From Escherichia phage vB_Eco_T-01: 64,000 nucleotides of DNA. The translations under genes were made by a program, and so were the position numbers. Every line of letters begins with the position of its first letter. The stretch's first letter is position 1. Of the stretch, positions 18,741 to 19,220 are shown piece by piece. Location: the sequence record PQ438391.1; one strand, given 5' to 3'. The notes below the pieces were generated by a model, which ran no database searches, was not told the DNA's origin, and saw only the letters and a list, made by a program, of their open reading frames with translations.

Positions 18741-18961
18741 TGGCAAAGATAATTATTGAAGGTTCTAAAGATGTTCTAAATGCTTTCGCCGAATGGTTTA
18801 GTAATTCAGGCGAACAGCAATTTAATGAAGCATGGAACATGGGTGATATTAATGGAATTTATCCTACGACAGAAATTTCTGTTCAAGGATATGGCATTCA
18901 TGAACCTATTCGTTTAGTTGAATATGATTTATGCACTGGTGAGGAAGTCAAATATGATTGA
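18740..18961 (+). CDS. hypothetical protein
   Basis: 73-aa ORF with overlapping start. Confidence 0.45.
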   Translation: MAKIIIEGSKDVLNAFAEWFSNSGEQQFNEAWNMGDINGIYPTTEISVQGYGIHEPIRLVEYDLCTGEEVKYD

Positions 18962-19220
18962 AGATATTAAAGGTTATAAGCCACATACCGACGAAAAAAT
19001 CGGTAAAGTAAATGCTATTAAAGACGCTGAAGTTCGTTTAGGACTTATCTTTGATGCTTTATACGATGAATTTTGGGAAGCATTTGATAGCTGTGAAGAT
19101 GATGAACTCGCGAAGAATTACGCCGAAAGCCTCGATCAGTTAACTATTGCTAAAACGAAACTCAAAGAAGCAAGTATGTGGGCTTGCCGTGCTGTGTTCC
19201 AACCAGAGGAAAAATATTAA
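18954..19220 (+). CDS. hypothetical protein (occupies the T4 vs.4 position by gene count from regB)
   Basis: ATG at 18954 after GAGGA RBS; 88 aa. Confidence 0.4.

Follow-up and report, generated by a model that had tools for sequence, protein, structure and literature searches.

The window analysed here is a stretch of 64,000 nucleotides of DNA from Escherichia phage vB_Eco_T-01 (sequence record PQ438391.1). On its plus strand lies an open reading frame (ORF) of 88 amino acids, which starts with an ATG at 18954 and ends with a TAA at 19218-19220. The coordinates and the 88-aa length given for it by a first-pass annotation were correct. That annotation had placed the frame, by gene position only, in the slot of T4 vs.4, reported as the anti-CBASS sponge Acb2. 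The features of this gene and of its companion are as follows.

18954..19220, + strand: coding sequence of vs.4 / acb2 (88 aa and a stop codon), predicted cyclic-dinucleotide sponge (ORF, PDB, Pfam, PHROG, AF2/Foldseek, T4 synteny)
18941..18947, + strand: Shine-Dalgarno-like GAGGAAG within the vs.5 3' end (read from the sequence; putative function)
18977..19022, + strand: codons 8-23, segment of ligand contacts near the N-terminus (Y8, H11, T12, K23; residues per PMC10097602), identical to T4
19083..19109, + strand: codons 44-52, hairpin tip, with four of the five differences from T4 (F44, S46, D50, L52; codon comparison, AF2 model)
19173..19199, + strand: codons 74-82, segment of ligand-contact and hexamer residues near the C-terminus (S74, A77, R79, F82; PMC10097602, PMC12657218), identical to T4 and invariant in homologues
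6833..7288, + strand: 57B / acb1, anti-CBASS nuclease (Pfam PF23474, PDB 7T26)

The mechanical ORF list also held a 100-aa version of the frame, starting from a TTG at 18918. This version was rejected, since the homologues start with MIED and the Shine-Dalgarno sequence serves the ATG at 18954. M-I-E-D is the N-terminus of all the homologues in an alignment of 40, GAGG is located at 18941-18944, 9 bases ahead of the ATG, and T4 vs.4 also encodes 88 aa; the ATG at 18954 was therefore taken as the true start of vs.4. The Shine-Dalgarno-like bases were also present in T4 when the two sequences were aligned. The start of vs.4 and the stop of vs.5, the gene upstream of it, overlap by 8 nt (ATGATTGA), and the vs.4 stop and the start of the downstream gene, vs.3, have one base in common (TAATG). 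Tight gene overlaps of this kind are typical of T4-type packing. In the T4 reference annotation, by contrast, there is a 36-nt gap between vs.5 and vs.4, which results from a 1-nt indel in vs.5. The window vs.5 (18740..18961, +, 73 aa) matched PHROG 1986 end to end (9.6e-44). The T4 reference vs.5 (63381..63557) is 58 aa long, and the indel, which lies after codon 17, alters the remaining sequence relative to the window vs.5. The T4 reference vs.5 annotation appears to be a frameshifted form.

The vs.4 product was compared with all PDB chains by phmmer. The best match was chain A of 7UQ2, the crystallised T4 Vs.4 (NP_049728; PMC10097602), with an E-value of 4.4e-53, and residues 1-88 were aligned without a gap, 83 of the 88 being identical (94.3%). 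This match, together with the excess of synonymous over nonsynonymous codon differences from T4, marks 18954..19220 as a genuine coding sequence rather than a fortuitous frame. The next PDB matches, at E-values of about 0.09, were to the Acb2 of phage PaMx33 ("p26"; 8IXZ and 8H2J). Although the PaMx33 protein is only about 22-26% identical to the window protein, the alignment paired Y8 with Y11 and K23 with K26, which are the Tyr and the Lys of the dinucleotide pocket. Moreover, the vs.4 product matched the Pfam Acb2/Tad1 hairpin family (PF24729, Acb2_Tad1_hairpin) with 9.4e-20 and 71 bits, the cutoff of the family being 27 bits, and it matched PHROG 717 (phrog_717) with 5.6e-32. PHROG 717 is the group from which Jenson et al. 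collected Vs.4 homologues (PMC10097602).

An AlphaFold2 (AF2) monomer model of the product was built from the 40-sequence alignment. The model is a two-helix hairpin with a mean pLDDT of 87.4, in which helices 13-45 and 50-81 are joined by a loop at residues 46-49. The confidence was low at both ends, residues 1-8 and about 82-88. Such low confidence would be expected if these ends take on a fixed structure only when the hexamer holds its ligand, and the pocket is left out of a monomer model. When the model was compared with the PDB by Foldseek, ranks 1-3 were the Vs.4 chains of 7UQ2 and ranks 4-7 were Acb2 chains of 8H2X and 8H2J; besides these top seven, no other fold was found below an E-value of 0.6. 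The hairpin fold is thus common to the window protein and PaMx33 Acb2 (8H2J, 8H2X, 8IXZ; Huiting et al. 2023; Cao et al., PMC10312549), with a Foldseek TM of about 0.70-0.74, and both belong to the same Pfam family. Tad1 (Thoeris anti-defence 1) also has the PF24729 hairpin domain and is a small oligomeric nucleotide-signal sponge too; however, no Tad1 structure was among the significant matches of either the phmmer search of PDB chains or the Foldseek search of the PDB, and nothing points to gcADPR binding by the window protein. Similarity to T4 Vs.4 in sequence and an Acb2 fold in a predicted structure had been named in the first-pass annotation as the checks on its assignment, and both came out in favour of it.

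The residues mapped in T4 Vs.4 were then compared with those of the window protein. The T4 Vs.4 hexamer binds three molecules of cGAMP, one per pocket, and each pocket lies where two monomers meet; base stacking is provided by Y8 and F82, and polar contacts by Y8, H11, K23, and R79 (PMC10097602). All of these contact residues (Y8, H11, K23, R79, and F82) were unchanged in the window protein. The same was found by sequence comparison for L29, F33, A66, A73, and A77, which constitute the oligomer interface of T4 Vs.4 (PMC10097602), and for T12, L60, S74, and A77, the positions hit in a loss-of-function screen of T4 Vs.4 (T12I, L60F, S74N, and A77I; PMC10097602). Furthermore, Y8, H11, K23, A66, S74, A77, R79, and F82 were invariant in the 40 homologues, whose identities ranged from 55 to 98%, and T12, L29, and A73 were at least 90% conserved in the same set.

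[quoted passage not shown] In T4-Acb2 the corresponding residues are D61 and T68, and neither cA3 nor cAAG is bound, not even by the D61R mutant (PMC10312549). Taking the equivalence of D61/T68 and R67/T74 from PMC10312549, the translation of the window gene shows the T4 pair, D61 and T68, rather than the Arg-Thr combination of the broad-spectrum PaMx33/JBD67-type Acb2 subgroup. By analogy with T4, the window protein is therefore expected to bind cyclic dinucleotides and not cyclic trinucleotides. The affinity of T4 Vs.4 for 3'3'-cGAMP has been given as a Kd of approximately 30 nM (Jenson et al. 2023, PMC10097602) and, for T4-Acb2, as approximately 84 nM (Cao et al., PMC10312549). From the 94% identity to T4 Vs.4, we infer that the window protein would likewise bind 3'3'-cGAMP in the nanomolar range and block the activation of the CBASS effector.

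The local gene order is that of T4: denV, vs.8, vs.7, vs.6, vs.5, vs.4, vs.3, regB, vs.1, vs, and tk.4. In the T4 reference (NC_000866), the minus strand reads tk, tk.1-tk.4, vs, vs.1, regB, vs.3, vs.4, vs.5, vs.6, vs.7, vs.8, and denV, and blastn showed the window segment 17363-21573 to be colinear with T4 64942-60712 at 92.7% identity. The slot that had been assigned to the gene by counting leftward from regB was thereby borne out, since the T4 annotation puts vs.4 two genes from regB, between vs.5 and vs.3, as in the window. The neighbouring proteins were 99.1% (vs.7), 99.2% (vs.6), 96.7% (vs.3), 99.3% (regB), 100% (vs.1), and 100% (vs) identical to those of T4. RegB was also supported by Pfam PF10715 (6.5e-69), and the vs.6 product is GrcA-like according to Pfam. 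The window phage is T4-like (Tequatrovirus-type), and its best database neighbours were Shigella phage Sf22, Enterobacteria phage Aplg8, and similar phages, at approximately 96-98%.

Sigma-70-like promoters and terminators were scanned for over 16300-20100. Within this interval, 12 sigma-70-like sites were found compared to 13.8 expected from shuffled sequences, i.e., there was no enrichment, and no such site lay just upstream of vs.4. Since the scan gave no promoter specific to vs.4, the gene is assumed to be expressed by read-through of the vs.8-vs.3 block, and its tight coupling to vs.5 and vs.3 suggests that it is co-transcribed with this block. In a compiled atlas, the transcription of T4 vs.4 and 57B is mostly middle/late (bioRxiv 10.64898/2026.03.30.715471). 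The lone intergenic sigma-70-like site of the scan was located at 19502..19530 (+), between vs.3 and regB and directly ahead of the latter; it consists of TTTACT, a 17-nt spacer with TG, and TATAAT, and the region is 100% identical to T4.

Several differences from T4 were observed elsewhere around the block. The single 219-aa vs.8 gene of T4 is split in the window into two ORFs, 17393..17494 and 17457..18044 (+), by an indel of approximately 8 nt near 17463-17554. The 33-aa ORF matches T4 Vs.8 residues 1-32, and the 195-aa ORF, which is in another frame, matches from about residue 41 on. A frameshift that turned vs.8 into a pseudogene, an organisation of the gene as two ORFs, or an error in the sequence might account for the split. 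Upstream of it, in the interval from denV to vs.8, which holds no gene in T4, lies a 157-aa ORF (16878..17351, +) with the N-terminus MKTYQEFITEA and a match to Pfam DUF7412 (1.3e-95). We presume that this N-terminus resembles the conserved leader of the T4 internal head proteins; the 5' ends of T4 ipII and ipIII match only the first approximately 30 nt of the ORF and the region upstream of it. The ORF appears to be a gene of the internal-protein type that is either additional or has been moved. On the other side of the block, the tk.4 macro-domain protein (20909..21388, +; Pfam Macro, 6.2e-08) is approximately 57% identical to T4 Tk.4, and the nucleotide identity to T4 is 44-77% across 20955-21430, beside the vs and vs.1 proteins, which are 100% identical. 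The tk.4 region is a sharp mosaic replacement beside a conserved block. The tk.1-tk.3 interval (21573..22149) was mostly unalignable with T4.

Within the block, vs.4 was the gene most diverged from T4, with a nucleotide identity of 91.4% compared to approximately 95-99.5% for its neighbours. The codon comparison revealed five nonsynonymous differences (T4 to window: E13D, L44F, N46S, C50D, and F52L) and 15 synonymous ones, and this ratio indicates purifying selection on vs.4. Four of the five substitutions flank the loop at the hairpin tip, the most variable and indel-rich stretch of the alignment of the 40 homologues, and all five lie in variable parts of the family. The nucleotide identity to T4 reached its minimum of 86% at 19055-19154, and the stretch diverged from T4, approximately 18755-19354, crosses gene borders. 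Positive selection was considered as the cause of the excess of differences in vs.4 and was rejected, because the synonymous differences are raised too and the divergent stretch spans gene borders. For the same two reasons, the divergence probably represents a small imported recombination patch, typical of T-even mosaicism, which is a simpler reading than adaptive change. That the exposed tip (F44, S46, D50, and L52) is under diversifying pressure, for example to evade sensing or neutralisation of the sponge by a host factor, and does not simply reflect neutral mosaicism, is in our estimation very unlikely.

The Vs.4 protein was found by tblastn in 1,231 phage records. Fifty-nine of them carry it at an identity of at least 99%, e.g., Escherichia phage slur14 with 100%; T4 carries it at 94.3%. 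In almost all of the best 40 of the 1,231 records, its label is "hypothetical protein". A Vs.4 100% identical to the window allele was also found in Pseudomonas phage vB_PSGBLB0006 (PV654520.1, 142 kb), whose record names P. aeruginosa as the host. As the allele is an enterobacterial, T4-type one, either this host label or the assembly looks questionable.

The companion gene at 6833..7288 was matched by the Pfam family Acb1 (PF23474) with 2.6e-60 over the whole model and by Acb1 of PDB entry 7T26 with an E-value of 4.1e-62, and both H-x-T motifs (HST and HIT) were present in the alignment. The proposal of a 57B/Acb1 candidate at this position thus held, as did the suggestion that the phage may carry both known T4 anti-CBASS functions: the Acb1 and the Acb2 genes are each identified by homology, and the phage accordingly carries the pair. 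Both proteins are directed at CBASS signals; however, Acb1 (T4 57B) has an unrelated 2H-phosphoesterase fold and degrades the signal, whereas Acb2 sequesters it. T4 itself pairs a dinucleotide-only Acb2 with Acb1 (PMC10312549).

With homology, fold, synteny, and the conservation of every functionally mapped residue established for 18954..19220, we consider it very probable that this frame is orthologous to T4 vs.4 (acb2) and that its product, as a hexamer, traps cyclic dinucleotides, so that the CBASS effector stays inactive. None of the observations spoke against this reading. In the model that would follow from T4, the 88-aa protein folds as a two-helix hairpin, and six copies would interlock into a hexamer with three pockets. 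Each pocket would lie at a dimer interface composed of the N-terminal segment together with helix 2 at its C-terminal end, and it would take up one cyclic dinucleotide, 3'3'-cGAMP or a related CBASS signal, by stacking of Y8 and F82 and by polar contacts of H11, K23, and R79. The sequestered signals would be of the cGAMP type, made by the host CD-NTase. By holding them, the sponge would raise the activation threshold of the effector (e.g., the phospholipase CapV would stay inactive), and the infected cell would not be killed before the phage cycle is completed. Mutants of T4 vs.4 plate about 50-fold less well on E. coli with a cGAMP-CapV CBASS that is defective in Cap2. Cyclic trinucleotides would be left to the nuclease Acb1 (6833..7288). 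By analogy, the window allele would thus share with T4 Vs.4 its assembly into a hexamer, its binding of the ligand, and its anti-CBASS phenotype.

Ligand spectra are known to vary among the Acb2 homologues (PMC10312549), and vs.4 is the gene of its block that differs most from T4. The tip allele may thus have moved the binding toward 3'cADPR, the signal of type I Thoeris, or toward cyclic trinucleotides. We regard such a shift as very improbable. The residues of the T4 dinucleotide pocket are all identical, D61 and T68 are those of T4, which leaves cA3 unbound, and in the model the substituted tip lies at the opposite end from the termini that would form the pocket; moreover, the Acb2 homologues with altered specificity are distant ones and not 94% identical. 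The gene might also be an inactive or dispensable remnant, kept by linkage and no longer a sponge, given that loss-of-function acb2 alleles are readily selected in Panoptes-carrying hosts (PMC12657218) and that the neighbours vs.8 and vs.5 carry frameshift differences from T4. This is extremely improbable, since the vs.4 frame is intact and of full length, synonymous differences outnumber nonsynonymous ones, the functional residues are all retained, and the Shine-Dalgarno sequence and the coupled start are preserved. In addition, the same or nearly the same protein recurs in the 59 phage records described above.

The link to Panoptes bears on the sponge in another way. T4 Acb2 triggers this decoy system, escape mutants include F82C, and Y8A abolishes the triggering (PMC12657218). 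The window protein conserves both Y8 and F82, and the window phage should, by analogy, be similarly exposed to Panoptes. We hold it to be somewhat likely that the gene is a liability in some hosts, in which Acb2 would bind the decoy 2'3'-c-di-AMP and thereby trigger Panoptes (OptS/OptE). Nevertheless, the triggering would be a consequence of the same sponge activity and not a separate function, and it complements the sponge mechanism rather than replacing it.

The vs.4 gene of the window is therefore a routine orthologue of an already known and characterised protein, and it adds no new mechanism. Its practical value lies in annotation: the name vs.4/acb2 can confidently be given to the gene, and Acb1 as well as Acb2, the two anti-CBASS functions known from T4, can be entered for the phage. 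By analogy with T4, the two together would predict resistance to CBASS systems based on cGAMP or other dinucleotides and sensitivity to the decoy-based Panoptes, and these predictions may be useful for host-range prediction and for the choice of phages in phage therapy.
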